In this document: positions 14,114-31,648 of the stretch, in pieces
Layout of the letters: every line of letters starts with the position of its first letter
Position numbering within the stretch: position 1 is the stretch's first letter
Assembly: GCA_016211945.1 (NCBI GenBank)
Contig: JACRHV010000006.1
Span: 1-44,722 of the forward strand
Origin: Minisyncoccota bacterium
GTDB lineage: Bacteria; Patescibacteriota; Microgenomatia; UBA1400; UBA12028
Direction: 5' to 3'
Length of the DNA stretch: 44,722 bases
Notes under the pieces: model-generated
Databases searched by the model: none
Seen by the model: only the letters and a program-made list of their open reading frames with translations
Told to the model about the DNA's origin: nothing
Translations under genes and position numbers: made by a program

Positions 14114-14713
14114 CTAAAAATCTAACCCCTTAATCGCGAGCTTCCCACTATCAAATGGATGTTTAATTTTTTTGATATCACTCACCAAATCTGCTTTCTT
14201 TATGATCGCCTGCGTTGCGTTTCTTCCGGTTAGTACAAGATGAACACCTTGTCTTTTTTCCACAATACGCATGACATCTTTTTCATCCACCAATTCGTCA
14301 TGTATTGCGTTGCATACCTCATCCAACACTAAAACATCAACTGCAGACAAAAGATTTTCTGCCTTTTGTAAAGCACTATTTGCAACAATACGATGACTGT
14401 CAGCACTGTCGTCATCAACGATAACCGCGCTGTTCGCACGCACAATTTTTACCTTTCCTACATGTTGTGACATTATTCCATTCTGAAGGTAAAACCCCTT
14501 TCCCATAGGAAAGAAAAAAAGTCTTTTTTTTGCCTCATCACTTAAAATTGTATCGAGTTTGTGTTCGCTGATTCCCCAACTCGCTTCCTTGTACCAACTG
14601 ACCCATCCCACGCTCCACCCATGTGTTAAGGCGCGCAAGACTATACCAAGCGCAGCACTCGTTTTCCCTTTTCCATCACCAGTAAATACATACACCAACC
14701 CGCGATCAGACAT
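14114..14713 (-). CDS. btuR: Cob(I)alamin/cob(I)yrinic acid a,c-diamide adenosyltransferase (CobA/BtuR/CobO family)
   Basis: GLVYVFTGDGKGKTSAALG, VLVLDE, LVLTGR, ADLVS, KHPFDSG...GLDF. Start moved to ATG 14713. Confidence 0.92.
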   Translation of the reverse strand: MSDRGLVYVFTGDGKGKTSAALGIVLRALTHGWSVGWVSWYKEASWGISEHKLDTILSDEAKKRLFFFPMGKGFYLQNGIMSQHVGKVKIVRANSAVIVDDDSADSHRIVANSALQKAENLLSAVDVLVLDEVCNAIHDELVDEKDVMRIVEKRQGVHLVLTGRNATQAIIKKADLVSDIKKIKHPFDSGKLAIKGLDF

Positions 14714-15302: not shown

Positions 15303-17858
15303 CTATTGTACCGGCGCTCTGTTCACCGGCGTTAACTCTTCACCACCGCCCCCGCCAGAAATCGGAGGTTCTGGTGGAATAAATCCGCCATCTAAATCCC
15401 AGTCTGTTGGAGGTGTTTTCACTACTCCTGGTGGAAACTGCGCACCTTGTTTACCAAAGTTATTCATAAGAAGTGCGTAATCGCGGTTGTTTACAATACC
15501 ATCGCCATTGAGATCCGCTGACTGGTACTTCCTGAAACACGCTCCCGTATCACTGCCTACACACTCGGTCTTTGGATCACCCCATTGCGTAAACATCTCC
15601 GCGACGTCAAACGTGTTGATCGTGTTGTCCTTTGCTGAACTCGTCGAGTCCGCATACACATTTCCTGCCGCTAAGGTTCCAAAATTCAGTTTTGTATTTG
15701 TCGTCAGCATATAGGCGATCGGTTTTCCGTAGTATGTTCGGAGATGTGCTGGAGTATCGACGTACAAATAGACCGGTCTCGACATCGTTTTTATGACCGA
15801 TGCATCAACAATCTCAAAAACCCCCGACGGAATACTATTTTCATTTCTCTGTAGCGGCACCGTTCCAACTGCTTGAAGTGTTTCTGTAGAAGAGACGCTC
15901 ATTCTCAAATCTTGTGGAGCTGTCGCTATATAGAGGGTGAGCGACGGCAATACGGCGGGATTCCCTTCCAATCCAACCTCCACTGGTATACGCAGTGTTG
16001 TTGCTGGTTTTGGAGTACTTGAGGGAACTGGAGTTGCAATAAGTATGGGTGATGGAGTTGGTGTTGGCGGGAGCGGGGATGGAGCTATCGTTGGCCTTGG
16101 AAAAGGCGTTGGACCAACACTTACCGACGGGAACGTAAAGGTATTTGTCAGTGCGTTATAACACAACGGACTGTCCATGGTCGCAACGAGGACATCATTG
16201 TTCGGATTTCCACTCAATACCGTCAATCCTTTCAACCATTTCATGATCATATACTTTCCATCCTTAGGATAGATGTAATACCACCCCTCATTGGTAGACG
16301 AATCAGGAAGAAAAGTGCTATCAACGAACCATTTTTCCTGTAATCCACCCCAATTTACATAGATGCCGTTTACGTGAATACGTAATGGGGCCACATATGC
16401 CAAAGCCTGTACAACATCAAGACAGGCCTTTTCTTGTACAGGCGGCGACGGAAATGGTTGAGTGCCAAGAACACACATACCGGGAGCACTTCCGTCTGCA
16501 TTCATACCAGCCTCGTCAATAATTTTGCAGTACATGTTGGCGGGACACGTCATGTTTCTACTCGAACAACCTGAGGATGGCGGCGTTGTTGTAGAAGATG
16601 GTGTTGAGGTTTTCCCCTCACATATCAACATTTTTTCACACGGATCCTTAAAACACTGAACACTTTCATATCGACAACCCTCTGGAGGAGCCGGATAGTC
16701 TACAACTGCCGGTCTACAGTATGCAGGCTGCATCTTTTCTGTGCATCCCTCACCGTTTATTGTCACGGGACAGAGCGGCTGTGGTGGTTGATAGCATATT
16801 TCACCCTTCGCACAATCGAGGTCTTTTACACACGTTTTGCTTGGTGGTGGCGTAGGGGTTGGAGAAGGAACTGCAGTTCCTATCTCCGCTTCAAATGTGG
16901 GAGGAGCACTCAAAAGACGTTCTTGTGGTTTCTGCACACTTGCCGCAAGAAGGGTGGAAAAACCGTTTATGTTTGTATCGTCTGTTGTGGTTGCTCCCCT
17001 ATACACGTACTGTATACGAAGTTTTCCAGGATTTTTTGGTGCGATAAAATGCAAGGTGCCAAATACACCCTTTCCAGAAAATCCTTTAAAATGACCTTGA
17101 TCGTCCACGGCATACGCCTTTACACCGGACAAGGCGATGGTGTTTTGATTGGAGATGATCGTTCCCCTATTTGCCGTTGGATATTCGTCAAAAAGAGACC
17201 CTTGTTTCAAATCGGTCAACACGAGTTGGTCCTGCGTGTTTGAAAGCGCCGCATCCACAGTATTGTCAGGAGGGACTGGATTAATAACCATCTCGATTGG
17301 CTTTATGTCCATTCCAGGGAGATATGGGACACCCTCACCAGGTGGAATTGGCAACGGTCCATCTTCCCTTGGCATACAGTATGAGGAAGGAAATACCTGA
17401 ATACACGCTTGTCCCTCCGGACACAACGGCATCGGCGGCTGATAACATCTCCCCCCTCCACAATCATCATCTGTTGTACAGCCCTTTTGTGAACTTTGTG
17501 AGGTTGGGGTAAATGAGTATGAGACAATCGCGTCCACACCGGATATTGAATAATTCTCATCTTCCACTGTATTAAGGACCAGATCAACTGTAAATGGTTG
17601 TCCTGGAGAAATTGGTGAGACATTCATGGCGAGAAAACTTTGAGGTTCTCCGCCCGCTTTACTCCTATTATCGGTTGTAGTGTTTTTCACCATAAGATAG
17701 GCTCCTCCGGACAATGCGGCGAGCATAATACCCAATCCCAAACTTACATCGAAAATCGTTCGTTTTGCCTTTTGCGAGATATGAACTGTGGGTGTACCAG
17801 ACGGAGACGTATCGTCATCTGGACGATCAAAAAAATCCTGAGGTTGGACATGAAGCAT
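15303..17858 (-). CDS. Membrane-anchored protein with cohesin-like, Cys-rich and dockerin-like domains
   Basis: One TM; cohesin-like GQPFTVDLVL...SGVDAIVSY...FGTLHF; repeated CYQPPxPLCP modules; Pro/Thr linkers; dockerin EF-hand pair DNTINTFD and ADLNGDGIVNNRDY. Likely start ATG 17858. Confidence 0.72.
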   Translation of the reverse strand: MLHVQPQDFFDRPDDDTSPSGTPTVHISQKAKRTIFDVSLGLGIMLAALSGGAYLMVKNTTTDNRSKAGGEPQSFLAMNVSPISPGQPFTVDLVLNTVEDENYSISGVDAIVSYSFTPTSQSSQKGCTTDDDCGGGRCYQPPMPLCPEGQACIQVFPSSYCMPREDGPLPIPPGEGVPYLPGMDIKPIEMVINPVPPDNTVDAALSNTQDQLVLTDLKQGSLFDEYPTANRGTIISNQNTIALSGVKAYAVDDQGHFKGFSGKGVFGTLHFIAPKNPGKLRIQYVYRGATTTDDTNINGFSTLLAASVQKPQERLLSAPPTFEAEIGTAVPSPTPTPPPSKTCVKDLDCAKGEICYQPPQPLCPVTINGEGCTEKMQPAYCRPAVVDYPAPPEGCRYESVQCFKDPCEKMLICEGKTSTPSSTTTPPSSGCSSRNMTCPANMYCKIIDEAGMNADGSAPGMCVLGTQPFPSPPVQEKACLDVVQALAYVAPLRIHVNGIYVNWGGLQEKWFVDSTFLPDSSTNEGWYYIYPKDGKYMIMKWLKGLTVLSGNPNNDVLVATMDSPLCYNALTNTFTFPSVSVGPTPFPRPTIAPSPLPPTPTPSPILIATPVPSSTPKPATTLRIPVEVGLEGNPAVLPSLTLYIATAPQDLRMSVSSTETLQAVGTVPLQRNENSIPSGVFEIVDASVIKTMSRPVYLYVDTPAHLRTYYGKPIAYMLTTNTKLNFGTLAAGNVYADSTSSAKDNTINTFDVAEMFTQWGDPKTECVGSDTGACFRKYQSADLNGDGIVNNRDYALLMNNFGKQGAQFPPGVVKTPPTDWDLDGGFIPPEPPISGGGGGEELTPVNRAPVQ

Positions 17859-17919
17859 ACTGCCATGCTGAACTACATCATGGAGAATGTCAAATATGTT
17901 TGGTTTTTCTTTGGTAAGG

Positions 17920-18549
17920 TTATGTGCGCATTCCAGTTTTTTCAAATGCACTACGTTCTATGTCAACCTCAATCGGAACACCAAGTTCCTCTAACATGTT
18001 CCGAACTGTTACCAGCGGAAATCCCACAACGTTCAACTCACTTCCTTGTACTTCTTGAATGAATCGCTTCGCGAAGCCTTGAAGTGCATATCCGCCTGCT
18101 TTGTCGTATGGCTCGCTCGTTTCAATGTATTGGTTTATCATCTCGTCACTAAAAGGAAAAAATGTAACGAGACTTTTCACAACCTCTGTCTTTTTCTCGC
18201 CGGTTTCACCATCAATCATGACAACTGCAGTAAAAACTGTATGTTGCTTTCCGCGTAAGGTTTTCAGCATAGCTCGGGCGTCATACAAATCTTTCGGTTT
18301 CCCATAGATCTTTTCATCAAGATAAACCGTTGTGTCCGATGCAATAATAAGTGCTTCCGGAAATTGGTCTGCAACAACAAGCGCTTTTCCCATCGCAATG
18401 GCCGACACATACTCTTCCGGATTGTTGAAATCTTCAAATTTTATTTGTTCTTCCAGAAAATTGCTCACATGTATTTCAAAAGGGATGCCCAACCATTTCA
18501 TGAGTTCTTGACGTCGAAATGAGCTTGAGGCGAGAACAATCTTTTTCAT
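17920..18549 (-). CDS. maf: Maf family nucleoside triphosphate pyrophosphatase
   Basis: IVLASSSFRRQEL, IIASDT, GKP, DKAGGYALQG, NVVGFP. Start ATG 18549. Confidence 0.93.
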   Translation of the reverse strand: MKKIVLASSSFRRQELMKWLGIPFEIHVSNFLEEQIKFEDFNNPEEYVSAIAMGKALVVADQFPEALIIASDTTVYLDEKIYGKPKDLYDARAMLKTLRGKQHTVFTAVVMIDGETGEKKTEVVKSLVTFFPFSDEMINQYIETSEPYDKAGGYALQGFAKRFIQEVQGSELNVVGFPLVTVRNMLEELGVPIEVDIERSAFEKTGMRT

Positions 18550-18595
18550 AACCGCTATGATACACTGTTCTGTAGTGAGATTATAAAGGAGGTAT

Positions 18596-19117
18596 ATGAG
18601 AAAGATCATCTATATATCTGCGTTACTAACGCTCATTCTTCTTGTCGCAACTCCCGCTTCCGTACTCGCTGTGGAAACCTCGCCCTCACTTCGTCAAGAG
18701 ATTAAAACTATAAAACAGGAAAAAAGACAGGTTGTTGCCGCAAGAAAGGCCGATCGATTGGAGAAATATTGTACTGTCGTTGAACAACGTATTATGAATC
18801 TCCTTCGTCGCATAGAGTCAAGAATGGCAAAACAGAAAGCCGATGGAAAAGATGTCACTGCGGTTGAGGCAGCTGTTACTGAAGCAAAAACACACATCAA
18901 TACGGCAACCTCCATGTGTCAACAGGCAGTTGCAAAATATGATGCGGTACCAACCGACAAATGGTCTGCTCAACATCCTTTTGTTGTTGAGGCAAGAGGA
19001 TTCGCAAAACAAGCACATGATGCATTTGTGAATGCGAGAAAGGCAGTTTCCCAAGCTCTCAAATCTCTCGCAGCGAATAATAATAAAGAAACACCTACGA
19101 TAAAAATCACACAATAA
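18596..19117 (+). CDS. Secreted helical/coiled-coil hypothetical protein
   Basis: AGGAGG RBS, signal peptide ending VLA, Ala/Lys/Glu-rich helices, two Cys. Confidence 0.7.
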   Translation: MRKIIYISALLTLILLVATPASVLAVETSPSLRQEIKTIKQEKRQVVAARKADRLEKYCTVVEQRIMNLLRRIESRMAKQKADGKDVTAVEAAVTEAKTHINTATSMCQQAVAKYDAVPTDKWSAQHPFVVEARGFAKQAHDAFVNARKAVSQALKSLAANNNKETPTIKITQ

Positions 19118-19432: not shown

Positions 19433-21754
19433 TTACAGTTTGCACTTACTGTACGCGCAGTTCGGGCAGAGGTTGCACCCCTCTTGGTTTTGCATTACAG
19501 TTCCACATTCCGGACATTTTTCTTCATCTGTGGTAATGTCGACGACATCTCCATGTTTGATTTCCTGCCGAATAACGGTAGAAAAATCGTTACGATCGGC
19601 AAGCGGAGTTACTCTATGCTGGCTTTGCATGATCTGCACTGATTTTTTATCCTTTTTCTTATCACTTCCCTGAGACATCACTGAAAGCACCTGAACGCTC
19701 TTGGATCTGTCACGATAAATTGTGATTCCTTTTAGACCTAATTTCCAAGCCAAAATGTAGGCTCCTCGAATTTCCTCAACCGTAGCGTTTGACGGAAAGT
19801 TAATTGTTTTACTCACAGCATTGTCGGTGTGTTTTTGAAATGCGGCCTGCATACGAACGTGCCATTCCCATGAAATATCGTGCGCTGTAACAAAGATGCG
19901 CCGGAGTTCATGCGGAACACTATCGCTATGCTGCACACTTCCCGTTTGTGATACCTCAGCGATAATCGCGTTATACTCACCATTACTTCCAACATATTCT
20001 TTCAATGCATGCTCAAAGTGCGCGTTTACATATGTTAATCCTGATGTATCAACAACATTCTTGTTATAACTCAACGCGAAAATCGGCTCAATACCGCTAC
20101 TGCAATCCGCAGTCATAGAAATTGTTCCTGTTGGTGCGATTGTTGTGATTGCGACATTTCTAAATTTTCTTGGAGAATGTTTGTGTGTATAGCTATGGGT
20201 CACCGGGTCGTATCCACGGGCAAACCAACTCTCCTTCCATCGAGGAAACGATCCCTTTTCCCTTGCCAGTTGCTCCGATGAAATCCAGCTGTTTTCTTGC
20301 ACATGTCGCATCACTTTTTCCGCAAGCTTAACCCCTTCTTCCGAGTTGTATGGAATTCCAAGCTGCACAAGCATATCCGCCCATCCCATGACGCCCAGGC
20401 CTATGCGTCTATTTTTTTTCACCGTTTCTGTAATTTGAGGTAATGGATATTTACACGCGTCAATAACGTTATCTAACATACGTGTTGCAATACGTGCGAC
20501 TTCACCCAACCGTTCCCAATTCACAACACCTTTTCCCTTTGAGTCCATCTTCACAAACGCGGCGAGATTAATCGATCCCAAGTTACACGAGTCAAAACCA
20601 TGAAGGGGTTGTTCACCGCATGGATTTGTTGCATAAATAGGTCCGACGCTATCGCAGAGCGGGTTGTTGCGATTGATCGCATCCCAATAGATCATCCCCG
20701 GATCGCCCGTTCTCCATGCTAAAGAAACAATTTGATCCATAAGCAGTCGTGCAGAGATTTTTTGTATTGGCTCCATAGTGCGTGGATTGCGTAACGCAAA
20801 CTCCGTATCTTTTTCTACCGCTTTCATAAACTCATCTGTCGCACCAACGGAAATATTGAAGTTGCTGATTTCTCCCTCTTCACTTTTACACGTAATAAAC
20901 TCGAGAATATCGGGGTGCCAAGCGGCCAAAATTCCCATGTTCGCACCGCGTTGCTTTCCACCTTGCATAACCTGACGCGTCGCGATATCAAATACCTTCA
21001 TAAATGAAACCGGTCCTGTGGAAAAGCCGCCGGATGATTTGGTGACTGCATCACCGCGGGGACGAAGAGGAGTGAAATCAAAACCCGTACCGCCGCCCGT
21101 CCTATGGACAAGTGCGGTCCACTTTACTGCATCAAAAATGCCTTCCATGCTATCTTCTACTGGTAAGACGAAACAATTTGCGAGTTGATTTTGTGGTGTC
21201 CCAGCATTATTGAGTGTTCTTCCACCGGGCAAAAACTCAAATTTTGTCATGACTTCATAAAACACTTCTCCCCATTTTTTCTGAACTGCTTTTTTTTCTA
21301 CTCCCGCAAGTGTTCGCGCAACACGACGGAACATTTCTGCTGGAGTCTCTGTGGGTTTTCCCTGCTGATCATGAAGGAGATAGCGACGCTCAATAACTTT
21401 AAGTTGATTGATGGAAAGATTGAGGTCATTCTCAACACCAAGAACCGTTTCTGCTTTACGGATTTTTGCGTGTTCTGCTCGATACAAAATGTATGCTTTC
21501 GCGGTTGAAAAATGACCTGCTGCCATGAGAACTTGTTCAACGGTGTCCTGAATCTGTTCAACAGTAACAGGAGATTTTTTTACACCAACAACCTTTTCCA
21601 AAATTCCACGCACTATGCCAGCCAATCGTACCGCATCCTGCTCTCCAAACTCACGCGTCTGAACTCCCGCCTTCTCAATAGCAGTCCCTATTTTTTTCTC
21701 TTCAAATGAAACTTTTGATCCATCTCTCTTTACCACCGTCTTCAACGCAGTCAT
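19433..21754 (-). CDS. nrdJ: Class II (adenosylcobalamin-dependent) ribonucleotide reductase, paralogue 3, with ATP cone
   Basis: VVKRDG ATP cone; [39 protein letters not shown] (no class I YY pair); C-terminal CPEC..GC..CPNC.YSKC. Confidence 0.92.
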   Translation of the reverse strand: MTALKTVVKRDGSKVSFEEKKIGTAIEKAGVQTREFGEQDAVRLAGIVRGILEKVVGVKKSPVTVEQIQDTVEQVLMAAGHFSTAKAYILYRAEHAKIRKAETVLGVENDLNLSINQLKVIERRYLLHDQQGKPTETPAEMFRRVARTLAGVEKKAVQKKWGEVFYEVMTKFEFLPGGRTLNNAGTPQNQLANCFVLPVEDSMEGIFDAVKWTALVHRTGGGTGFDFTPLRPRGDAVTKSSGGFSTGPVSFMKVFDIATRQVMQGGKQRGANMGILAAWHPDILEFITCKSEEGEISNFNISVGATDEFMKAVEKDTEFALRNPRTMEPIQKISARLLMDQIVSLAWRTGDPGMIYWDAINRNNPLCDSVGPIYATNPCGEQPLHGFDSCNLGSINLAAFVKMDSKGKGVVNWERLGEVARIATRMLDNVIDACKYPLPQITETVKKNRRIGLGVMGWADMLVQLGIPYNSEEGVKLAEKVMRHVQENSWISSEQLAREKGSFPRWKESWFARGYDPVTHSYTHKHSPRKFRNVAITTIAPTGTISMTADCSSGIEPIFALSYNKNVVDTSGLTYVNAHFEHALKEYVGSNGEYNAIIAEVSQTGSVQHSDSVPHELRRIFVTAHDISWEWHVRMQAAFQKHTDNAVSKTINFPSNATVEEIRGAYILAWKLGLKGITIYRDRSKSVQVLSVMSQGSDKKKDKKSVQIMQSQHRVTPLADRNDFSTVIRQEIKHGDVVDITTDEEKCPECGTVMQNQEGCNLCPNCAYSKCKL

Positions 21755-22182
21755 TTCTTCTCCTTCTCTTGCTCCGGTTCATACAGTGGATGACCGCCTC
21801 GAGTTGCTGCTTTTATTTTGTAATAGGCCCGATCTTTTTCTTCCTGTGTCATGGTGGGGGAAAAAAGTGATTCTGGATATTTCTTCTCATTTTTTTCCAT
21901 TTTTCTCTCAAATGCTTGTGCGACATCGATTCCAAGTCGATCGCCCAAGTTCACGAGCCACCACAACACATCACTCATTTCTTCACTAATTGCGTCCTTA
22001 ATTTTTTGATTGTTCAGTACTTCATCACCAGTGAGCCACTGAAAATGCTCAAGAAGCTCGGACCCCTCAAGAATCAAGGAAAGTGCTATATCCTTAGGAT
22101 CCTCATTTGTCCATCCTCGCTTTTTTCGAAATATTCGAATAAGCTCTTTTATTTGTGAGAGTGATGTCGTCTGGTCATTCAT
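21751..22182 (-). CDS. MazG-like nucleotide pyrophosphohydrolase (dCTPase-like)
   Basis: RGW...PKDIALSLILEGSELLEHFQW...EEMSDVL...KMEKNEKKYP. Start ATG 22182; overlaps the nrdJ-3 start. Confidence 0.87.
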   Translation of the reverse strand: MNDQTTSLSQIKELIRIFRKKRGWTNEDPKDIALSLILEGSELLEHFQWLTGDEVLNNQKIKDAISEEMSDVLWWLVNLGDRLGIDVAQAFERKMEKNEKKYPESLFSPTMTQEEKDRAYYKIKAATRGGHPLYEPEQEKEKK

Positions 22183-22216
22183 TTGTTTTTCTCCCTCTGT
22201 GGCGCAGTGTCCCTTT

Positions 22217-22705
22217 TTACAACGTTTTTGCGTAATCATCAAGCATTGTTCTATGATCAAAAGCAACGTTTTCTGGTAATTGATGAAGTGGGAACCATTG
22301 GATATCGGTTGCTTCTTCCTCATTTGCCGTCAACACTCCTTGGTACGTTGCAATAAAACAATGTCCTATGTTCTGTCTTCCATCCAAATCTCTTGCGGGA
22401 TTATCGTAGAGTCTGAAGAACGTGATCGTGCTGACGTCCAAACCAGTCTCTTCTTTTACTTCCCTCTTGGCTGTTTGCTCCAACCGCTCTCCCCAATCAA
22501 CATATCCTCCAGGAAGTGACCACCACCCTTGTTGTGGCATCGCAGCGCGCCGAATAAATAAGACCTCTTTTCTTTCATTGAGCATGATCACCTCAACCGT
22601 ACTACACCGAACGTTATATCGAGCACAGGATGGACAAAACGTCCCAGTTGGAATCTTTCCATTTGGATACTTTGTCCATGTTATAGTGATTTGATCTTTA
22701 GTCAT
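22217..22705 (-). CDS. Nudix hydrolase (ADP-ribose pyrophosphatase-like)
   Basis: Nudix box GGYVDWGERLEQTAKREVKEETGL; AFDH; N-terminal CPSC. Confidence 0.92.
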   Translation of the reverse strand: MTKDQITITWTKYPNGKIPTGTFCPSCARYNVRCSTVEVIMLNERKEVLFIRRAAMPQQGWWSLPGGYVDWGERLEQTAKREVKEETGLDVSTITFFRLYDNPARDLDGRQNIGHCFIATYQGVLTANEEEATDIQWFPLHQLPENVAFDHRTMLDDYAKTL

Positions 22706-23609
22706 GCGTTCTCTCTTTCATTAATGCAACGTCAAGATAATCGAGAAAAACATGTTCGTTCATCTCAATCGCACCACTTAATTCTTGAAAAAGTGTGTCA
22801 CCAAAGTCGTATGAAAACTTTTCTTCTACAGCTCTACCATAAACAAAACCAAATACCCCCAGGCCCATACTTAATAAAAACAAGCTAACTCCTAGCCCCT
22901 CATCAATTGAAGTTAATCTTTCACTAAAAATGTTTACCAGCCATGTTGTTAATAACGTTGGAGTTAACGCCAGTGTTGTGATAAGTGCTCTTTTCTCAAA
23001 TATTTTTCTCCGATGTTCCAGTTCATGCGCAAGCGTCCAGGACATTTCAGATTTCAACGCACGAACAAGCTGTCTTTTTATAAATTCCTTTGCACGCGTC
23101 TGTTGTTCTTCCGCTGGAAGTGTATTTGAAAGAGTTCCTTGTTTTGAAGCCTTGAGATACTTTGATCTCCTCTTCATATTTCCTTTTAAAAGACTTCTAT
23201 GAAAATCTGTCCCTAATGTTTTCATTGCCATATATGGCCAATTTGTGGGAAAAAAAGGAGAGGTTACTACTTTTGTTACAAGATCATCTTCATTCATTTT
23301 CTCTTTTGTGAGATATCCATACACATAGCATAATGCTTTCATAAAACTTTGTTGATAAATAAGAATTCTCTTTTTTGATAGTTCATATCTTGCCAGACTC
23401 CCCGGGTCTTCTTCATTTGTAAGCACAACAGAAGAAAGTAGGTTCTCAGGAAAACCAGCCCGCAACAAAACTTCGCGCACTTTGTGCATATCAATTGAGA
23501 AAATTGCTTCTTGTGGAGACATTTTCTCCAACTGAAATGTAAAATCTTCGACTAATTCTGTGGGAACTTCTGCTGTATCAAGATTTTTATTTACCATATG
23601 TTGTTTCAT
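22698..23609 (-). CDS. Hypothetical protein with an HExxH motif and two C-terminal TM helices
   Basis: LAHELEH followed by two hydrophobic segments and EE; AT-rich; abuts the nrdJ-2 stop and overlaps the Nudix start. Confidence 0.65.
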   Translation of the reverse strand: MKQHMVNKNLDTAEVPTELVEDFTFQLEKMSPQEAIFSIDMHKVREVLLRAGFPENLLSSVVLTNEEDPGSLARYELSKKRILIYQQSFMKALCYVYGYLTKEKMNEDDLVTKVVTSPFFPTNWPYMAMKTLGTDFHRSLLKGNMKRRSKYLKASKQGTLSNTLPAEEQQTRAKEFIKRQLVRALKSEMSWTLAHELEHRRKIFEKRALITTLALTPTLLTTWLVNIFSERLTSIDEGLGVSLFLLSMGLGVFGFVYGRAVEEKFSYDFGDTLFQELSGAIEMNEHVFLDYLDVALMKERTHD

Positions 23610-26600
23610 TTACATCGTACACTTGCTCCACCCACAATCTGGACAGCTCACACACCCACTTTCATACTTCAATGAAGCCGCCGCACATTCCGGACACACG
23701 TGTTTTTCCCCACTCGCCGGCTTGTTCGAATGTGTGTGCGCATACTCTACTTCACTCTTTTTCATCTTGGAGACAGCATCTTTTGATAAGGCGCTTTCTT
23801 TGCCTGCAACATTCAATACCTGATCCACTTTGCTTCCATCTCGGTAAATCGTAATTCCTTTCAACCCCAATTTCCACCCCAAAAGATACGCTTTTTTCAC
23901 ATCCTCAATCGTTGCATTATTTGGAAAATTAATCGTTTTACTTACTGAATTATCGATCCATTTTTGCCAGGCAGCTTGTATACGTACATGCCATTCTGGT
24001 GAAATGGTATGCGTTGTCACAAACATACGTTTCTCTTCTCTTGAAAGTTCTTTAACACCATCCAAGTTACCATCGTGTACAACCTGCTTCATGATTTTTT
24101 CTCTAGTTTTTTCATCAAATTTTGACCGCAAAAATTCATCAAATATAGGATCTGCAATGGTAAACTCGCGTGTTGGAGCGTTTGCTGTACTGTCCTCATT
24201 AAAACTTCGCCGAACTTGCACTAAAGAAAATACCGGCTCTATACCAGAACTTGTGTTTGCAAACAATGAAATGGTGCCCGTGGGTGCAATCATCATCACC
24301 GCACAGTTTCGATATCGCTCGGATGTTCCAGCATATATGGAAACATCAAAATTTGGAAATGCGCCACGCTCCTTCCCAAGTTCGATCGATGCTTCCTCTG
24401 CTTTTTTCCGCATAAATTTTGCGATGCGTTCCGCGAGCCGCACGGCTTCCTCGGAATTATATGGTATTCGCATGCGGTACAACATGTGCGCATATCCCAT
24501 AACGCCGATGCCAATACGCCGGTTTCCCTCCTTTACCATCTGTCGAATTTCGTCCAGTGCATAGGTATTAACCTCGATCATGTCGTCTAAAAATCGCACG
24601 CCTAGTTTTACGGATTTCTCGAGGTCATCCCAATCAATCTCCCACTCGCCTTTCTTGTTTTTTATGAGATGACGATTGAGATCAATTGATGTTAAATTAC
24701 ATGATTCATAGGGCAATAATGGTATCTCTCCGCAGTTATGGACAACAAAGCCGTTGGCAATAAAAGAGTGTGTGTCAGGTTCGGTTACATCAAATACGGG
24801 TTCCTCTTCGCCTTCTGTAATCGAAAAAATTTGATCTTCAAACTTCTGTTTATAATATGTTTTTAAAAAGAGTTTATCTATTTTTTCATGATGAAGTGGT
24901 CCAATAAATCCGATTTGTCGAATAAATTCTTGCACTTGATCTTTAGATATCTCCAATTCCCACAAGACCCCATCACTCCCATACCTCACTTTAGTTCCAT
25001 TCGCTTTTGTGTATTCAGGAAAAATAGCAACACGCGCTTTCCTTGATCGATTATATATTTTACTAAAAATTCCAAAGTTAAGGAGTAAAGTCTGTACATC
25101 ACGTAAAAGCTCTTTTGACTTTGAGGTTAAACGAACATATGACGACTTATTTTTTACAAAATTTACAGTACCATCAGCACTAAATAGACCACGCAAAAAC
25201 CCTGAAACCGCTGCTTTATGCATTTTATAAATGCATTCGGGAACACGTTTGAATTCGGAGCGAACAGGAAGAACTCCCAGATCTACTAAGAAATGCGCAA
25301 ATATTTTATTATGCATCCATAATTGATTCGAACGATTATTTGGACTACGATTTGTGATATGAAGACCCCATCCAGAAAGACATTCCTCAAAATATTCTTG
25401 AATTTCTTGTCGTGATTTTCCAAAAGTCACATAGACATAATTATCTTTTGCGTCTGAACGTAATGATCCATCACCAACCAAATACCCTAGAAATTCTCCG
25501 AATCGTTCTGTAGAAACTTTTGGATATGAATCGGGATATTTTTGTGAAAATTCAATAAATGATTCAAGTTTTTTTTCCGCTGACCATAATCCTCTTCCCG
25601 ATTGAATAAGCATAGTATCTTTTAGATTTAAATCTTTTACCTCAATCCAGCCGCGCGTTGTCATAAATTTATGTTCTGCGGTCGCTCGAATAGTGAAGCC
25701 ATATACAGTTTTTATTTCATAAATTTTCTTCATTCCTGTGCATTGAAAATTGTGAGCTTTTCTTGATGAGACTCCATCTTTACTTTTCTCAGCAAGCCTT
25801 GAATCAATCGCCATCAAGACATGCTTTTCTCCATATTTCTTTACAACTTCATCAAACCGTAATAACCCATATTCTGTTGGAATTCGTGCATCACCGGTAA
25901 TACAAGGATTTGTTGCATTTAACACGCCCAAAGAAGGTGTGGGATTATCTTCTTGAAGTCGGTCCAAAAACGCAAGTCCAGGGTCACCTGTTGCCCATGC
26001 GTGTTCTGCAATCAAATCAAAGACCTCACGAGCTTTTACGGTTTTCCACACTTCTCCATTTCGCGGATTCATTAAATCCCACTCCTTATCCGCCTGTACC
26101 GCCTCCATAAATTCGTTTGAAACACCAACGGATATATTGAAATTTTTGATTGTGCCATCCTGATCTTTCAACGTAATAAACTCAACGATGTCCGGGTGGT
26201 CGGCATTCAAAATCGCGATGTTTGCTCCCTGTCGTTTCGCTCCCTGTAAAATTTGTGAGAGTGCTGCAGAATAGGCTTTCAAAAAATCAACGGGCCCTGA
26301 TGACGCCTTAGGTACATTCTTAACTTTGTCACCATGCGGCCGAATTTTCGAGAAATTAAATCCTGTTCCACCGTTGTTTTTATGAACAACAGCAGCATCG
26401 CCTAACGTTTTAAATATTTTTTGGATACTGTCATCGATAGGCAAAACAAAGCAACTTGACAACTGCCCTGTGCCTCCGGGATTCCCAGCCTCAAACATTG
26501 CTTTTCCCGCACAGACAAACTTGAGATTCACCATGCGTTCGTAAAATGCGCGTGCCGTCTCATCAACAATTCCATTCTCGCCCCATTGAATCTCCGCTTT

Positions 26601-27041
26601 TGCCATGTGTCGCGCAACGCGCCACAACATCTCGCCTGGAGTTTCGATCACAACTCCATTCATATCTGTGCGGAGATACCGCTTCTTAACAATTTCGAGT
26701 GCCGTGGGGCTAAGTTCTGGTTCCTGAACGTGAATAGCTTTATTGGCCTTCTGTTGCTTTTTTTCGCCATACAAAATGTAGTATTTTGCCGTCGCAAAAT
26801 ATCCCGCCTCGGCAATCGTAGGCTCTACAACATCCCGAATCTGTTGCACCGTCACTGCGTCATGCTGTGTGCGGACAGACGCAAGTTTTACCTCGACCTT
26901 ACGGACAATACGATCCGCATCTTTTTCCTCATACTCTCCAGTGTCTTTTCCTGCATGAATGATGGATGAAGAAATTTTTTCCATTGAAAACGGAACTTTT
27001 TTTCCATCACGCTTGATCACAAAAACAATAGATACACCCAT
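23610..27041 (-). CDS. nrdJ: Class II ribonucleotide reductase, paralogue 2, with ATP cone and intein
   Basis: VIKRDG ATP cone; QLSSCFVL; TNP[intein]CGEIPL; SCNLTSIDL; APTGT; KGITIYRDGSK; C-terminal CPEC..GC..CPDC.WSKC. Confidence 0.92.
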   Translation of the reverse strand: MGVSIVFVIKRDGKKVPFSMEKISSSIIHAGKDTGEYEEKDADRIVRKVEVKLASVRTQHDAVTVQQIRDVVEPTIAEAGYFATAKYYILYGEKKQQKANKAIHVQEPELSPTALEIVKKRYLRTDMNGVVIETPGEMLWRVARHMAKAEIQWGENGIVDETARAFYERMVNLKFVCAGKAMFEAGNPGGTGQLSSCFVLPIDDSIQKIFKTLGDAAVVHKNNGGTGFNFSKIRPHGDKVKNVPKASSGPVDFLKAYSAALSQILQGAKRQGANIAILNADHPDIVEFITLKDQDGTIKNFNISVGVSNEFMEAVQADKEWDLMNPRNGEVWKTVKAREVFDLIAEHAWATGDPGLAFLDRLQEDNPTPSLGVLNATNPCITGDARIPTEYGLLRFDEVVKKYGEKHVLMAIDSRLAEKSKDGVSSRKAHNFQCTGMKKIYEIKTVYGFTIRATAEHKFMTTRGWIEVKDLNLKDTMLIQSGRGLWSAEKKLESFIEFSQKYPDSYPKVSTERFGEFLGYLVGDGSLRSDAKDNYVYVTFGKSRQEIQEYFEECLSGWGLHITNRSPNNRSNQLWMHNKIFAHFLVDLGVLPVRSEFKRVPECIYKMHKAAVSGFLRGLFSADGTVNFVKNKSSYVRLTSKSKELLRDVQTLLLNFGIFSKIYNRSRKARVAIFPEYTKANGTKVRYGSDGVLWELEISKDQVQEFIRQIGFIGPLHHEKIDKLFLKTYYKQKFEDQIFSITEGEEEPVFDVTEPDTHSFIANGFVVHNCGEIPLLPYESCNLTSIDLNRHLIKNKKGEWEIDWDDLEKSVKLGVRFLDDMIEVNTYALDEIRQMVKEGNRRIGIGVMGYAHMLYRMRIPYNSEEAVRLAERIAKFMRKKAEEASIELGKERGAFPNFDVSIYAGTSERYRNCAVMMIAPTGTISLFANTSSGIEPVFSLVQVRRSFNEDSTANAPTREFTIADPIFDEFLRSKFDEKTREKIMKQVVHDGNLDGVKELSREEKRMFVTTHTISPEWHVRIQAAWQKWIDNSVSKTINFPNNATIEDVKKAYLLGWKLGLKGITIYRDGSKVDQVLNVAGKESALSKDAVSKMKKSEVEYAHTHSNKPASGEKHVCPECAAASLKYESGCVSCPDCGWSKCTM
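24735..25904 (-). mobile_element. 390-aa intein with LAGLIDADG homing endonuclease in nrdJ-2
   Basis: Block A CITGDARI, block B IRATAEHKF, LAGLIDADG motifs FLGYLVGDG and FLRGLFSADG, blocks F/G VFDVTEPDTHSFIANGFVVHN/C; in frame; AT-rich relative to the exteins. Confidence 0.95.
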
Positions 27042-27050
27042 CAAAACCCC

Positions 27051-29135
27051 CTATATACTACATTTGCTATACGCACAACTCGGACACACAAAACACCCCT
27101 CCTGAATAACAAGCGTGGTACTACATTCGGGACATGCCTCATCACCAGGCCTCACTTTTATTAGCGGCGCGCCAACAAACGCCTCGTTGTTAAATGTCTT
27201 TCCATCTTCTTCTCGTTTGCGTTTTGTATCACCGGTCTCCAACACAACCTTGCTTCTGCTTCCCGTAACATACACCGTCATTCCTTTTAATCCTAATTTC
27301 CATCCTTTGAAGTATGCTTTCCAGACTTCGTCTTCTGTTGCTTCTGCTGGAAAATTAATTGTTTTGGAAATGGCATTGTCGACAAACCGTTGCAGTGCCG
27401 CCTCCATCTCAACGTGTTCGCTCACAGGAATGTCACCCGATACAACAAACACTTCACGAATCTCTTTTGGCACATCGTCAAGATCTTGGCATGTTCCGTG
27501 TTGTCTGATCTCCTCAAAAATGGTTTCAATGCGTTTTTCGTCGAGCTTTGCGCGTTCAAGTGATTCTTTAAATAAACGACTCTCATAATACAACTCACGA
27601 AAATCTTGGCCGAGTTTTTCTGCTCCTTCATGTGTTCGCATCACGTAACTCAACGCAAAGACTGGTTCACATCCGTATCCCTCCAAACCAGAAATCGTGG
27701 CAATTGCTCCAGTAGGCTGAATGGTGTTTTGACAGCTGTGACGCACTCCATGTGTTTTGATATTTTTTTCGAGTAACTCCCAGTCTAATTTTGGCATTCC
27801 AACGTGGTGTTTGTAGTCGTGTAATGGTTTTGGACGACTCCAAACTTTGATTCCTTTTACCTTGAGTGTTGCAATATTCTGTTCAGAATAGTCATACCGA
27901 CTTCCTTTTATTCCTGGAAATGCGCCGCGTTCTTGTGCAAGCGCGTTTGATGCGCGTAGTGTGTGGAAACGAATATATTCCATGATTTGGCCGGCAAAAT
28001 CGATGCCTTTTTCGCTCCCATATCGGACTCCAACAGCGTAAAGCATGTCTGCTAATCCCATAATAGAAATACCAATACGTCTATTGCGTTTTGCAGCCTC
28101 TTCCAACTCCGGAACCGCAGAAACATATTTATTCGCATCAACGACATCATCGAGCCAACGCACGGTATACTCGACAGTTTCCGCTAATTTTCCCCAGTCA
28201 ACGCTGTACGGGAACATACCTTTTTTCTTCTCGTCAAGTTTTACGTGTTCCGCAAGATTGATTGAGGCCATACAACAGTTTTCGTACGGAAGGAGGAATT
28301 GTTCTCCGCAAGGATTTGTCGCTTCAAGATCTCCTTGTGATGGGGTTGGATTTTCTCGATTTGCCTCATCCAAAAACAACACCCCTGGCTCCCCATTGTG
28401 ATGCGCAAAATGAACAATGTCATGGAACAACTCCCGCGCCTTAACACGCTCCCACACTTCCCCATTCCGTGGATTTATTAACGGAAAATCAGTATCTTTT
28501 TCCACCGCCTCCATAAACGCATCGGTAATACCAACAGAAATATTAAAATGCTCGATGACACCCTCCCGCTCCTTACAATGAATAAATTCACGAATATCTG
28601 GATGGTGGACAGGGAGAACTGCCATACAGGCCGACCTACGTCCCCCACCCTGACCAATGACCCAAAACGCTGTGTCATAGACCTTCAAGAAGGACACCGC
28701 TCCCGTTGCCTTTCCTTTTGATGAACCAATAGAGTCTCCTTTGGGTCGAATACGCCCAAAGCTAAATCCAACACCCCCACCCGATTGCAGTACGAGCACG
28801 GCATCACGTAGTGTTGTAAATATCCCATCCTGCGTACGACCCATATCATCGCTGATAGGAAGAACAAAACAGTTCGCGAGCTGCCCCCATCCCGTTCCTG
28901 CATTTGCTAAAGTTCGTCCGTTTGGCATAAATCGAAAATCTTGTAAAAGATCTAAAAATTTCTTCTCGATTTCCTGAGGTGTTGAACCATCTCTGTAGTT
29001 ATGCTCTGCCTGTGCAACAACTCGCGCAGTGCGAGACAAAATATCTTTCACTGTCTCTTTTGGATTGCCATCATCATCGCGAAGCGCATAGCGGTTAATC
29101 ATGACTTCTTGTGCGTTCGGCGTTAATTTTTTCAT
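27051..29135 (-). CDS. nrdJ: Class II ribonucleotide reductase, paralogue 1, without ATP cone
   Basis: [42 protein letters not shown]; C-terminal CPEC..GC..CPSC.YSKC. Confidence 0.9.
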
Positions 29136-29137
29136 GC

Positions 29138-29611
29138 TTAGCGGCCTTTCTCTCTCTCCATCTCACTTTTTACTTTTCGAATTTCGCTCTCAAAGTCCTC
29201 AAGTGTTTGAAAATCTCTGTACACACTTGCGAATAGAAGATACGAAACGGGATCTACCTTACGTAATCGATTCATCACGAGCTTTCCAATCTCCCAACTT
29301 TTAATTTCATTCGTATGTTTAATACGGAGTTTCCGTTCTATTTCCTCGATAAGCGCCTCAATGTCCTCGACTGAAATAGGCCGTTTCCATGTTGCCTTCA
29401 TCACACCCTTTTTTACTTTTTCTCGATCAAAAGGTTCTCGTTCCCCATTTTTCTTCACCACTGTGAGATCGACTCCCTCAACACGCTCGTAGGTGGTAAA
29501 TCTCTTTTCGCATTTCTCACATTGGCGGCGGCGGCGCATCGTCGCTTGATCCGGCACAATACGACTTTCAAGAACGATAGAGTCATCGTGTGAACAATAT
29601 GGACATTGCAT
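29138..29611 (-). CDS. nrdR: Transcriptional repressor NrdR
   Basis: MQCPYC...RRRRQCEKCEKRFTTYE Zn ribbon, ATP cone VVKKNG, YLLFASVYRDF. Start ATG 29611 with a GGAGG RBS. Confidence 0.97.
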   Translation of the reverse strand: MQCPYCSHDDSIVLESRIVPDQATMRRRRQCEKCEKRFTTYERVEGVDLTVVKKNGEREPFDREKVKKGVMKATWKRPISVEDIEALIEEIERKLRIKHTNEIKSWEIGKLVMNRLRKVDPVSYLLFASVYRDFQTLEDFESEIRKVKSEMEREKGR

Positions 29612-29646
29612 ATCTCGTGTATTCCTCCAAAACATCTCGCAATAAA

Positions 29647-29694
29647 TCACTAGATATAGTGTGCGAATATTCAGTGAAACACTACCACTAGTGT
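29647..29694. promoter_or_regulatory. Tandem NrdR boxes
   Basis: TCACTAGATATAGTGT (29647-62) and ACACTACCACTAGTGT (29679-94) match the acaCwAtATaTwGtgt consensus; starts are 32 bp apart, the canonical spacing. Confidence 0.88.
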
Positions 29695-29804
29695 TCGTCA
29701 ACTGTTCAGAAACGATCAAACTCGATCATTATGTACAATCCAGATTCAAATATATTCCAGCAGTTTTTGAGGAGATAACCGAACACGTTTTATATGCAAG
29801 AATA

Positions 29805-30398: not shown

Positions 30399-31068
30399 AA
30401 ATCATGAGTACCATCCCCCACAATGCGTGGGAGATCACAATCGAATACAAACTCTTGGTTCGTAAAAACAGTATCGCTTGTCCCGCGGCAAAGATCCCCA
30501 AAAGCGTGAGCTGCGCTACAGCAACGGAACCAAAACCCTCAAGCATAAAACGGAGCGGGGCGTGGAACGCGACAAACACAATACATGCGGCGACAACCGC
30601 AAATACTTCTGGTAGTTTGTATTCATCCTTCATCGCATTCATGATGTATCCGAAAAAGAACACGCTTTCCCACCAACCCGTCATCATCGCCAAGAAAAAC
30701 GTGTACCAAAACTGTGATGATGCAAACAACATTCCAGGCTCAACGTGTGTTCCAGAAGACAAGGAACGAAATGCCCCCACAAATCCATAAATACCTCCAA
30801 CGAGCAGTCCCATGTACATGCCGCACCAAAACCGATCCGGGGACAACCCAAGTTTTTCCCTCACACGAAGCGCGTTCCGTGCGTAAAGAAGTGATGGGAG
30901 ACCAAACACGATTCCCTTTGCAAAAATCTCGTCAAACCAATCTGGAAATACAAACAATGAACGATACAACGCCCAGAGAACAAAAAGGCCAATTATCTGA
31001 AAAAACACCGGAATATGTTTTGGTGTAGACACTTTCTTACGAGCCGAGCGCACGAAGGACTGTTTCAA
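30385..31068 (-). CDS. CPBP/Abi (CAAX protease-like) intramembrane protein with degenerate motifs
   Basis: Multiple TMs; ESVFFFG, FVAFH and SHALW align to EExxxR, FxxxH and HxxxN. Start uncertain. Confidence 0.7.
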   Translation of the reverse strand: MKQSFVRSARKKVSTPKHIPVFFQIIGLFVLWALYRSLFVFPDWFDEIFAKGIVFGLPSLLYARNALRVREKLGLSPDRFWCGMYMGLLVGGIYGFVGAFRSLSSGTHVEPGMLFASSQFWYTFFLAMMTGWWESVFFFGYIMNAMKDEYKLPEVFAVVAACIVFVAFHAPLRFMLEGFGSVAVAQLTLLGIFAAGQAILFLRTKSLYSIVISHALWGMVLMIYGTP

Positions 31069-31648
31069 GTGTTTCCTCTCGCGAGTTTGAGTATGTATCG
31101 ATAACTACATCGTAGAGGGATGGGAGCCAAAAATCAATTGCGTCGTTTTTCTTGACTTTACCTGGCTGAACAACCCACTCATTCCATTCTTTTGCATATA
31201 CCCGAGACCACTTCTCAACATTTTTTTTCTTCCTCTCTAAGATGTGCTGTTTTGCTTCTAGAATGCTGATGTCGTCTCTGTTCACGATACGGTCGATACG
31301 AACCGCATCATCTTTGCACACAAGGAGTACCTTCAACACTCCGGGTACTCCCTGCGCCATAAAGCCGGAAAGCCACGATTCCAATATCCATTTCTCTTCA
31401 TGTTCTAACCTTGATCGCATACCGTAGTCCACCTCACGATCAAACTCCTCACCGTACACCGTAGCATCGTGGTGAAATTTGTTTGTTTTTGCATCAAAAA
31501 GGCCTTTGTCTGCCGCATACATCCGCATGAACTCACCGCCAGAAAACCCCTTCCATCCCTTCGATTCCAACGTATCCTTGAGTAATTTTAGGAGCGTTGT
31601 TGATCCGTTTCCAGGAAGTCCTGATATGGTGATGTTGCGGTACTGCAT
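31037..31648 (-). CDS. Archaeal-type cytidylate kinase family protein
   Basis: ITISGLPGNGSTT, SGGEFMR, DREVD, ILESWLSG, RIVNRD, YDVVIDT. Confidence 0.78.
   Translation of the reverse strand: MQYRNITISGLPGNGSTTLLKLLKDTLESKGWKGFSGGEFMRMYAADKGLFDAKTNKFHHDATVYGEEFDREVDYGMRSRLEHEEKWILESWLSGFMAQGVPGVLKVLLVCKDDAVRIDRIVNRDDISILEAKQHILERKKKNVEKWSRVYAKEWNEWVVQPGKVKKNDAIDFWLPSLYDVVIDTYSNSREETLETVLRALGS

Follow-up and report, generated by a model that had tools for sequence, protein, structure and literature searches.

In the textbook view, one ribonucleotide reductase (RNR) makes all four deoxynucleoside triphosphates (dNTPs) by allosteric switching. The stretch of DNA considered here (the window: 44,722 nucleotides, contig JACRHV010000006.1 of a Minisyncoccota bacterium) carries on its minus strand, between positions 19433 and 29719, seven open reading frames (ORFs) lying head to tail, and three of them encode class II RNRs, NrdJ-1, NrdJ-2 and NrdJ-3 (J1, J2 and J3), behind the gene for the regulator NrdR. 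A single-strand cluster of seven genes at this place had been claimed by an earlier note made from the letters of the DNA, and the ORF list bears it out, positions and tight packing included. We consider with moderate confidence that J1, J2 and J3 may be co-expressed, specialised isozymes.

Several NrdJ in one genome are already documented. The sections of Loderer et al. 2021 (PMC8365446) drawn on here count more than one NrdJ in 1108 organisms, 69% of which mix a type that reduces nucleoside diphosphates (NDPs) with a type that reduces nucleoside triphosphates (NTPs), a pairing that is offered as the reason for co-occurrence; in the same sections the presence of several NrdJ in one genome is acknowledged to be an unexplained redundancy. 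There the apical loop tells the two types apart, with P-N-S-P in NDP reducers and P-[ASG]-G-R in NTP reducers. The statement of the earlier note that multi-RNR genomes usually mix classes is corrected by these numbers, and, as far as the cited sections go, the triple operon is a variant of a documented situation. The window genome resembles the multi-nrdJ genomes of that survey in having several NrdJ, but differs from the pairs described there in that here there are three or four copies, no P-N-S-P, one NrdR operon, and these are the only RNRs of a 0.9-Mb genome. The locus presents the open question in a clean form: a 0.9-Mb genome under strong gene-loss pressure has three same-class enzymes, one regulator and no other RNR.

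Two further systems are close to this locus. The dimeric class II RNR of Thermotoga maritima (PDB 1XJE, 1XJN) is the best solved-structure match to J3 (2e-113) and has in common with the trio the barrel, the NPCGE finger loop, the redox Cys pair, the loop 2 Gln and the effector-site Asp, Arg and Phe, and both are without the insertion domain of the monomeric type. However, T. maritima has one NrdJ, with a P-N-S-P loop and a crystallised chain without ATP-cone, whereas here there are three chains, two with an ATP-cone and all with a Cys-rich tail. In Pseudomonas aeruginosa, following the cited part of PMC4520616, the split NrdJa and NrdJb are encoded by adjacent, co-expressed and NrdR-regulated nrdJ genes, as proposed here, but they are one enzyme in a catalytic and a Cys-rich piece, whereas the window encodes three full-length enzymes. 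The same bacterium has, in the cited part of PMC4009431, RNRs of classes I, II and III, likewise several under NrdR in one genome; these mixed classes differ in oxygen and cofactor needs and in expression conditions, while here enzymes of the same class stand behind one promoter region. A literature search to which supplements and RNRdb did not belong turned up nothing published on triple nrdJ operons of Patescibacteria, nor on the fused double NrdJs described below.

Domains and catalytic residues

All three proteins score far above the curated equivalog cut-off of the NrdJ_Z model (TIGR02504; 608.0, 614.6 and 717.0 bits for J1, J2 and J3, against 399.95). The Pfam scan finds in each of them the barrel (PF02867, 1e-122 to 5e-136) and the all-alpha N domain (PF00317), lists the monomer-type insertion domain (PF21995) for none of the three, and assigns one ATP-cone each to J2 and J3 and none to J1. 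The motifs xxCFVLP and NPCGE, a second redox Cys (in ENCC, ESCN or DSCN) and the tail CPEC...C..C..C, which is also written CxxC...CxxCxxC, are present in all three, the NPCGE of J2 only once its intein is removed. When J3 is aligned to the T. maritima enzyme, equivalents of C134, N320, C322, E324 and C333 are identified, and these, together with the Cys-rich tail, are kept in J1, J2, J3 and every full-length orthologue examined; the equivalents of the effector-site residues D141, R171 and F190 and the loop 2 Gln are retained in all clades. In GLKG[IM]T[IV]Y, a position that we take to be the YY site of class I, each NrdJ has a single Y and not YY. By curated model, domains and residues, all three are class II, non-monomeric NrdJ. 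The C-terminal Cys-rich Zn-finger domain of NrdJ shuttles electrons according to the cited part of PMC5704485, and the tails of J1, J2 and J3 are predicted to be such shuttles.

The redox Cys pair, the NPCGE motif and the C-terminal Cys cluster, which the earlier note had reported for all three enzymes, are confirmed by reading and alignment (for J2 after splicing), and so are the lack of the YY pair, with the YY site placed as assumed above, and the intactness of the three enzymes, all of which exceed the NrdJ_Z cut-off and retain the catalytic residues. Their pairwise identity is 37.6-40.9%. An assembly repeat or a recent duplication, already rejected in that note, is excluded by this identity (38-41% in round numbers) and by the three separate clades described below.

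The genome has 908,181 bp in 16 contigs, is 100% complete and holds exactly three PF02867 matches; neither R2/NrdB (PF00268) nor NrdD (PF13597) is found in the whole of it, so that the absence of an R2 gene, noticed earlier for the window, holds for the genome as well. J1, J2 and J3 are the only RNRs found in this genome. Radical generation is predicted to rely on adenosylcobalamin (AdoCbl) and to need no R2 or activase, considering that PF00268 and PF13597 are missing from the genome and that the window has a gene for a CobA-type adenosyltransferase, which would make AdoCbl from scavenged cobalamin. A PduO-type adenosyltransferase was not found in a search for it.

Phylogeny and conservation of the trio

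Three trees were built, with FastTree (116 rows) and with IQ-TREE in quick mode under LG+G4 (71 and 90 rows); all are midpoint-rooted, with Shimodaira-Hasegawa-like support only and weak deep branches. In all three, J1, J2 and J3 form separate clades (support 99-100) with other sequences between them. The J1 clade (9 rows, support 100), on a long stem branch (0.36-0.63), has a sister clade (100) whose enzymes come from Anaerolineae and further Chloroflexota, WWE3 and Saccharibacteria (loci L049-L106; numbers beginning with G, L and P are our own for genomes, loci and proteins). The enzymes of this sister clade are 49-58% identical to J1, are the sole NrdJ in 79 of 80 loci with flanks of up to 10 kb, and are the only PF02867 match in each of the five genomes that were searched whole. 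In the two IQ-TREE trees, the N units of fused double NrdJs form the sister group of the J2 clade (support 100 for the clade, 98 and 96 for the pairing), and the J3 clade (100) is sister (98) to a fourth paralogue, J4.

The sample of relatives comprises 41 genomes including that of the window (G000), i.e. 40 relatives. A NrdJ of the dimeric type above the cut-off occurs in 14 of the 41, G000 among them, and 13 of these 14 have at least three copies or pieces, the other (G035) two. Comparison by BLAST of the NrdJ clusters from 12 relatives with the three window proteins gives one-to-one orthologues: in genera of the same family (G006, G008, G009) they are 75-84% identical for J1, 79-83% for J2 and 68-77% for J3, and in other families (G020, G021, G037, G038 and others) the values are 59-60%, 57-69% and 49-58%. 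The arrangement nrdR-J1-J2-J3 is shared by 13 of the 40 relatives; the order nrdR-J1-J2-(Nudix-MazG)-J3 is conserved among relatives, with Maf downstream. Nudix orthologues lie between J2 and J3 in G006, G008, G023 and G040, MazG-like orthologues lie directly ahead of J3 in the same four and in G009, and Maf adjoins J3 in nine relatives; G088 and G131, which belong to the same class and to a family not listed in the window's order, have this gene order too, with neither Nudix nor MazG.

Between G000 and G006 the nonsynonymous divergence (dN) is 0.126 for J1, 0.126 for J2, 0.174 for J3 and 0.160 for nrdR, and between genera it is about 0.13-0.27 for the three NrdJ; because synonymous sites are saturated (NG86 and YN00 gave no synonymous divergence, dS), these values are not expressed as dN/dS ratios. 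None of J1, J2 and J3 shows relaxed selection, and selection on them is purifying. The earlier note had looked for three old lineages that co-occur in the same order with no copy relaxed, and this is what the data give: clades with 99-100 support, orthologues in the same order in other genera, in other families and in a second order, and low dN beside saturated dS, in place of a ratio.

The composition of the set varies among the relatives. In G023, G024, G032 and G040 the first slot is occupied by a non-orthologous, cone-less P-N-S-P enzyme (J1'), and most trio genomes outside the window's own family have the unlinked J4, which was not found in G000. In J4 (L020, L022, L024, L026, L033, L041) NLCGE replaces NPCGE, and loop 2 reads ..LQAGGRRSGNMV. 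The J2 orthologue of G008 consists of two overlapping ORFs (L017 5647-6258 and 6167-8035), one with the ATP-cone part and one with the core part, for which a frameshift, an error in sequencing and a genuine split are all conceivable.

Across the class, NrdJ at E <= 1e-60 is found in 200 of 251 genomes (a tally that takes in G106, flagged as unpublished), with one match in 163, two in 26 and at least three in 11; these are counts of matches rather than of gene copies, as a gene with an intein gives two matches. In the single-copy genomes G042 and G145, nrdR is followed by one P-N-S-P NrdJ. The trio is a lineage-specific but stable solution in a class most of which has one NrdJ. Within the window's own family, nine genomes (G001-G005, G010-G013) have one protein of 716-790 aa with a weak NrdJ_Z match, and in both cases examined, G003 of the same family and G015 of the same order, the weak match is a monomeric-type class II RNR with PF21995 (loci L036 2281-4431 and L038 1869-4175); closely related genera thus use quite different RNR solutions. 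The earlier note had named relatives with only one copy as an argument against its reading; it is correct that many relatives have a single RNR, but that RNR is of another subclass, and the relatives with the trio keep several.

NrdD, the anaerobic class III enzyme, is found in 9 of the 41 genomes, often in two copies, and at least two NrdD matches on different contigs are often seen in G014, G017, G018, G022, G028, G034, G035 and G039. A tendency to keep RNR paralogues of one class may be widespread in this order.

The apical loop

At the position of the apical loop, FIPNSPTL of T. maritima aligns with FLPGGRTL of J3. The J3 loop, P-G-G-R, fits the NTP motif (its orthologues have the variants P-A-G-R, P-A-G-G and P-A-G-C), whereas the J1 loop has G-R after P-N (P-N-G-R in 9 of 9 J1 orthologues), a hybrid that the cited sections of PMC8365446 do not list, and the J2 loop has G-K after C-A (C-A-G-K, with the variants C-S-G-K, P-G-G-K and V-A-G-K). 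P-N-S-P occurs in none of J1, J2 and J3, so that by the motif rule published in those sections none is of the NDP type. Because no copy is P-N-S-P, the pairing of NDP and NTP types was rejected as the reason for co-occurrence in G000; it could fit G023, G032 and G040, whose first gene encodes a P-N-S-P enzyme.

In the sister clade of J1, P-N-S-P is found in 52 of 60 loci (of the other eight, four were unparsed, three were truncated or ambiguous and one matched a second gene), while the next outgroup (P0167, P0212) has P-A-G-R. Therefore, the motif has changed on one of two branches of the midpoint-rooted trees, and J1 and its sister clade represent a natural switch of the motif predicted to set NDP or NTP preference. 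The literature takes such a change of preference as having occurred essentially once. A P-N-G-R lineage beside a P-N-S-P lineage is a natural experiment on the determinant of NDP/NTP preference, for which mutagenesis failed in one direction.

Functional interpretation

An alignment of 9 J1, 14 J2 and 13 J3 sequences, in which a column is taken as conserved within a clade at >=85%, has 563 core columns; 115 of them are identical across the three clades, and 26 are fixed within each clade and different between clades (type II sites). The fixed differences are concentrated in the specificity module, which comprises the apical loop, helix αA, loop 1, helix αB and loop 2 as regions set before counting: 12 of its 82 columns are of this kind, against 14 of the 481 others (odds ratio 5.7; Fisher p 7e-5, descriptive only, as the sequences are related). 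This enrichment suggests a division of labour among the three enzymes. Since none of the chains lacks catalytic residues, an effector site or a tail of its own, we take them as three co-expressed isozymes, each of which is most likely a homodimer like other non-monomeric NrdJs.

The locus would then be a vertically kept operon, autoregulated by NrdR, that encodes three anciently separated AdoCbl-dependent RNR alpha chains. Two aspects would be specialised. First, the coupling of substrate choice to dNTP effectors could differ, with loops 1 and 2, αA, αB and the apical loop fixed per lineage; second, feedback by deoxyadenosine triphosphate could differ between J1, which has no ATP-cone, and J2 and J3, which have one each. 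Together the three enzymes would give the balanced dNTP pool that elsewhere comes from one switched enzyme, the Nudix, MazG-like and Maf proteins would clean this pool, the CobA-type adenosyltransferase would supply the cofactor, and J2 would be active only after intein splicing.

Several points weigh against specialised, co-expressed isozymes. The enriched region is both specificity site and dimer interface and therefore fits substrate specialisation and changes in pairing alike; changes that are specific to heterodimers or that avoid cross-dimers would explain the enrichment equally well. The borders of the regions are what we take to be the T. maritima residue numbers, mapped through the J3 alignment, and the relatedness of the sequences tempers the Fisher test as stated. 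Since the D141, R171 and F190 equivalents are identical in J1, J2 and J3, no substrate assignment is readable from the sequence. The replacement of J1 by J1' in four genomes means that the set is not fixed in composition, and since one monomeric NrdJ suffices in many relatives of the same family, three are not needed in principle. Co-transcription is suggested by the gene spacing, and a scan for promoters and terminators inside the operon finds no more than chance would give (15 where 21.3 are expected, and 9 where 9.1 are expected).

A hetero-oligomeric RNR, in which two paralogues, most plausibly J1 and J2, would form a mixed dimer whose two different specificity sites and active sites share out the work, with J3 separate or joining, appears somewhat unlikely. 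An indirect hint of it comes from fused double NrdJs, which are common in other Patescibacteria. A search of representative sequences with J3 returned two very long matches (P0125, P0126), each with two complete NrdJ units in one chain, and among the 120 best clusters of a search with one fused NrdJ, 104 are longer than 1300 aa (P0274-P0377); the fused proteins measure 1300-1670 aa, and their sources name Dojkabacteria, Kerfeldbacteria, Parcubacteria and 'Patescibacteria group'. Of the 23 fused proteins that were split, every one retains the catalytic Cys set in its N and its C unit alike, but the N unit is without a Cys-rich tail, whereas the C unit has the tail, a TSCPD domain and a divergent loop 2 lacking the conserved Gln. 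As the tail is in the C unit only, the two fused units must cooperate. Paired, diverged class II chains that work together thus appear to exist in this phylum, and J2, which is sister to the N units and has the same loop 2 (QILQG.KR.GAN), is the nearest unfused relative of one partner. Like the trio, the fused proteins keep two diverged NrdJ chains together in ultra-small genomes, and the Ham1/ITPase domain (PF01725) found between the units in some of them resembles the Nudix and MazG-like genes between J2 and J3 here. A J1-J2 dimer would also accord with the 6 nt between the two genes (5-60 nt or an overlap in most relatives), with a first slot that always holds a cone-less enzyme, even where this is the non-orthologous J1', and with the location of type II sites within the interface helices αA and αB.

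However, the fused proteins are one polypeptide whose N unit has lost its tail, whereas J1, J2 and J3 are separate chains, each with its own Cys-rich tail and a complete active site. No protein of the C-unit clade is found by trees and motif comparison in the window or in the relatives' operons, and therefore the Rosetta-stone link covers one partner only; since J2 moreover has its own tail, the link to a heteromer stays a hint. The spacing between J1 and J2 reaches 616 nt in G020 and 825 nt in G037, and the closest outside relatives of J1 are solitary. An obligate heteromer is accordingly hard to reconcile with a complete catalytic set and tail in every copy and with a J1 whose nearest outside relatives are sole RNR alpha chains.

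It is unlikely, too, that in these Microgenomates a fixed team of three to four class II chains replaces the one switched RNR altogether, whether as obligate mixed dimers that would correspond, without fusion, to the fused NrdJs, or as specialists with nearly one enzyme per substrate. In such a team, J1 with its P-N-G-R would mark a natural change in phosphate preference relative to the P-N-S-P sister clade. If specialisation or heterodimers proved true, the view of dNTP balance in ultra-small symbionts would change, and the matter is directly testable with three recombinant proteins of a trio that is conserved across two orders.

Redundancy or a buffered supply is doubtful. The RNRs would then be interchangeable, each acting on all four substrates, and the copies would serve dosage, tolerance of different cobamide forms or redox partners, or insurance against the invasion of one copy by an intein. 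The three enzymes do have the same domain core and catalytic residues, inteins do invade NrdJ genes (J2 here; J3 in G021, G032 and P0124), and the composition does vary by lineage, with J1 or J1' and with J4 present or absent. On the other hand, about 7.8 kb of a 0.9-Mb genome are devoted to the three NrdJ, the three lineages are kept distinct and ordered across families and two orders, and the loop 2 and apical loops specific to each clade are strongly conserved, with fixed differences enriched in the specificity module, whereas loss or homogenisation would be expected of interchangeable copies; the single promoter region speaks against condition-specific use. That at least one paralogue has left ribonucleotide reduction, as a regulatory pseudo-enzyme or for another substrate, is very improbable, because, although the J2 apical loop and its variants fit neither published motif and the J1 stem is long, every catalytic and redox residue is retained in all clades, as are the Gln of loop 2 and the counterparts of the effector-site Asp, Arg and Phe, and all three scores are far above the equivalog cut-off.

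NrdR and its putative boxes

The NrdR-box consensus is taken by us to be ACACWATATWTWGTGT, in tandem 16-bp boxes spaced by ~31-32 bp in the promoter. Two palindromes of this kind lie upstream of nrdR (table 1), and their distance of 32 bp is the canonical spacing, but only palindrome 2 is a good match. The tandem boxes of the earlier note are therefore upheld in part: one box and the spacing agree, whereas the second box is a poor match and the count over the whole window, 6 occurrences at <=3 mismatches against 3.05 expected, is not above chance. Of the 11 operons scanned, 10 have a box with <=4 mismatches ahead of nrdR and 2 have a tandem pair, and G006 has the same tandem pair. It is the position and the recurrence in relatives that give weight to these putative boxes.

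The intein in NrdJ-2

The intein of J2 matches PF14890 (2e-17) and PF14528 (2.7e-23). Its junctions read ATNP|CITGD...VVHN|CGE: the first intein residue is a Cys, and at the C junction a Cys follows His-Asn. The J2 orthologues of G006 and G009 are without it, and a homologue of this intein occupies the same site in a J3 orthologue, P0124, of another genome; the J3 of G021 and G032 have an insert elsewhere, close to model position 111 (L025 7200-10880; L027 2481-6131). Inteins seem to move among NrdJ paralogues.

Layout of the operon and neighbouring genes

The features are listed in table 1. The listed nrdR ORF (29138-29719) is too long, and the start is the ATG at 29611 (MQCPYC...); its Pfam matches, PF22811 and PF03477, extend from ORF residue 37 onward. 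J2 starts with TTG at 27044 or ATG at 27041. The junctions of the operon are mostly gaps of 0-6 nt or overlaps, and the start of J3 overlaps the stop of the MazG-like gene, whose own true start is probably internal, since its orthologues have ~140 aa. A fusion of J1 and J2 by stop-codon read-through was considered and rejected: although J2 follows J1 without a change of frame in 7 of the 13 genomes, further in-frame stops occur within several of the spacers.

Table 1. Positions of the RNR genes, their putative regulatory sites and neighbouring features in the window.
Feature	Position	Strand	Description
NrdR-box-like palindrome 1	29679..29694	-	ACACTAGTGGTAGTGT; 83 nt upstream of nrdR ATG; 4 mismatches to ACACWATATWTWGTGT
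NrdR-box-like palindrome 2	29647..29662	-	ACACTATATCTAGTGA; 51 nt upstream of nrdR ATG; 2 mismatches
nrdR	29138..29611	-	157 aa; Zn ribbon and ATP-cone; TIGR00244 186.4 bits against cut-off 124.65
NrdJ-1 (J1)	27051..29135	-	694 aa; without ATP-cone; apical loop P-N-G-R; Cys-rich tail
NrdJ-2 (J2)	23610..27044	-	1144-aa precursor, 754 aa once spliced; ATP-cone; apical loop C-A-G-K; NPCGEI; Cys-rich tail
Intein with LAGLIDADG homing endonuclease, in J2	24735..25904	-	390 aa, residues 381-770, directly before the thiyl-radical Cys
HExxH protein	22698..23609	-	303 aa; two predicted C-terminal membrane helices; no family assigned
Nudix hydrolase	22217..22705	-	162 aa; PF00293 at 1.2e-27
MazG-like NTP pyrophosphohydrolase	21751..22323	-	Listed ORF 190 aa; PF12643 at 3.2e-12
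NrdJ-3 (J3)	19433..21754	-	773 aa; ATP-cone; apical loop P-G-G-R; loop 2 QVMQGGKQRGANMG; Cys-rich tail
Maf-like nucleotide pyrophosphatase	17920..18609	-	PF02545 at 2.3e-54; downstream neighbour, syntenic
CobA/CobO/BtuR-type ATP:corrinoid adenosyltransferase	14117..14704	-	PF02572 at 6.8e-42; 5 kb from the RNR genes

Genes that sanitise the dNTP pool are thus embedded within the RNR operon. The nucleotide-pool genes around the RNRs are those for Maf, the MazG-like protein, Nudix and a cytidylate-kinase-like P-loop protein (31037-31648), all of which are syntenic in relatives. An 882-aa ORF (15303-17951) between the adenosyltransferase and Maf has a sub-threshold dockerin-like match only.

The HExxH protein has no NCBIfam match and in Pfam only a sub-threshold match to MMADHC (17.3 bits against a cut-off of 27), and in the Atlas search the leads, M48-like, all stay below 0.9. 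Its gene is present in 2 of the 41 genomes, G000 and G007 (locus L130, G007:C39:5378-6277), in the same slot between J2 and Nudix and with 77% identity. A role as an MMADHC-like protein that handles B12 is not supported, given the sub-threshold Pfam match, the lack of any Atlas lead at or above 0.9 and the occurrence in two genomes only. The G+C content at this gene is ~0.39-0.40, against ~0.45 in the surroundings.

The nearest homologues of J1 are named Pacebacteria, Microgenomates, Beckwithbacteria and Chisholmbacteria by their sources. The only sequencing run that contains DNA of the window is a DNA run of a groundwater metagenome, which may be the source sample.

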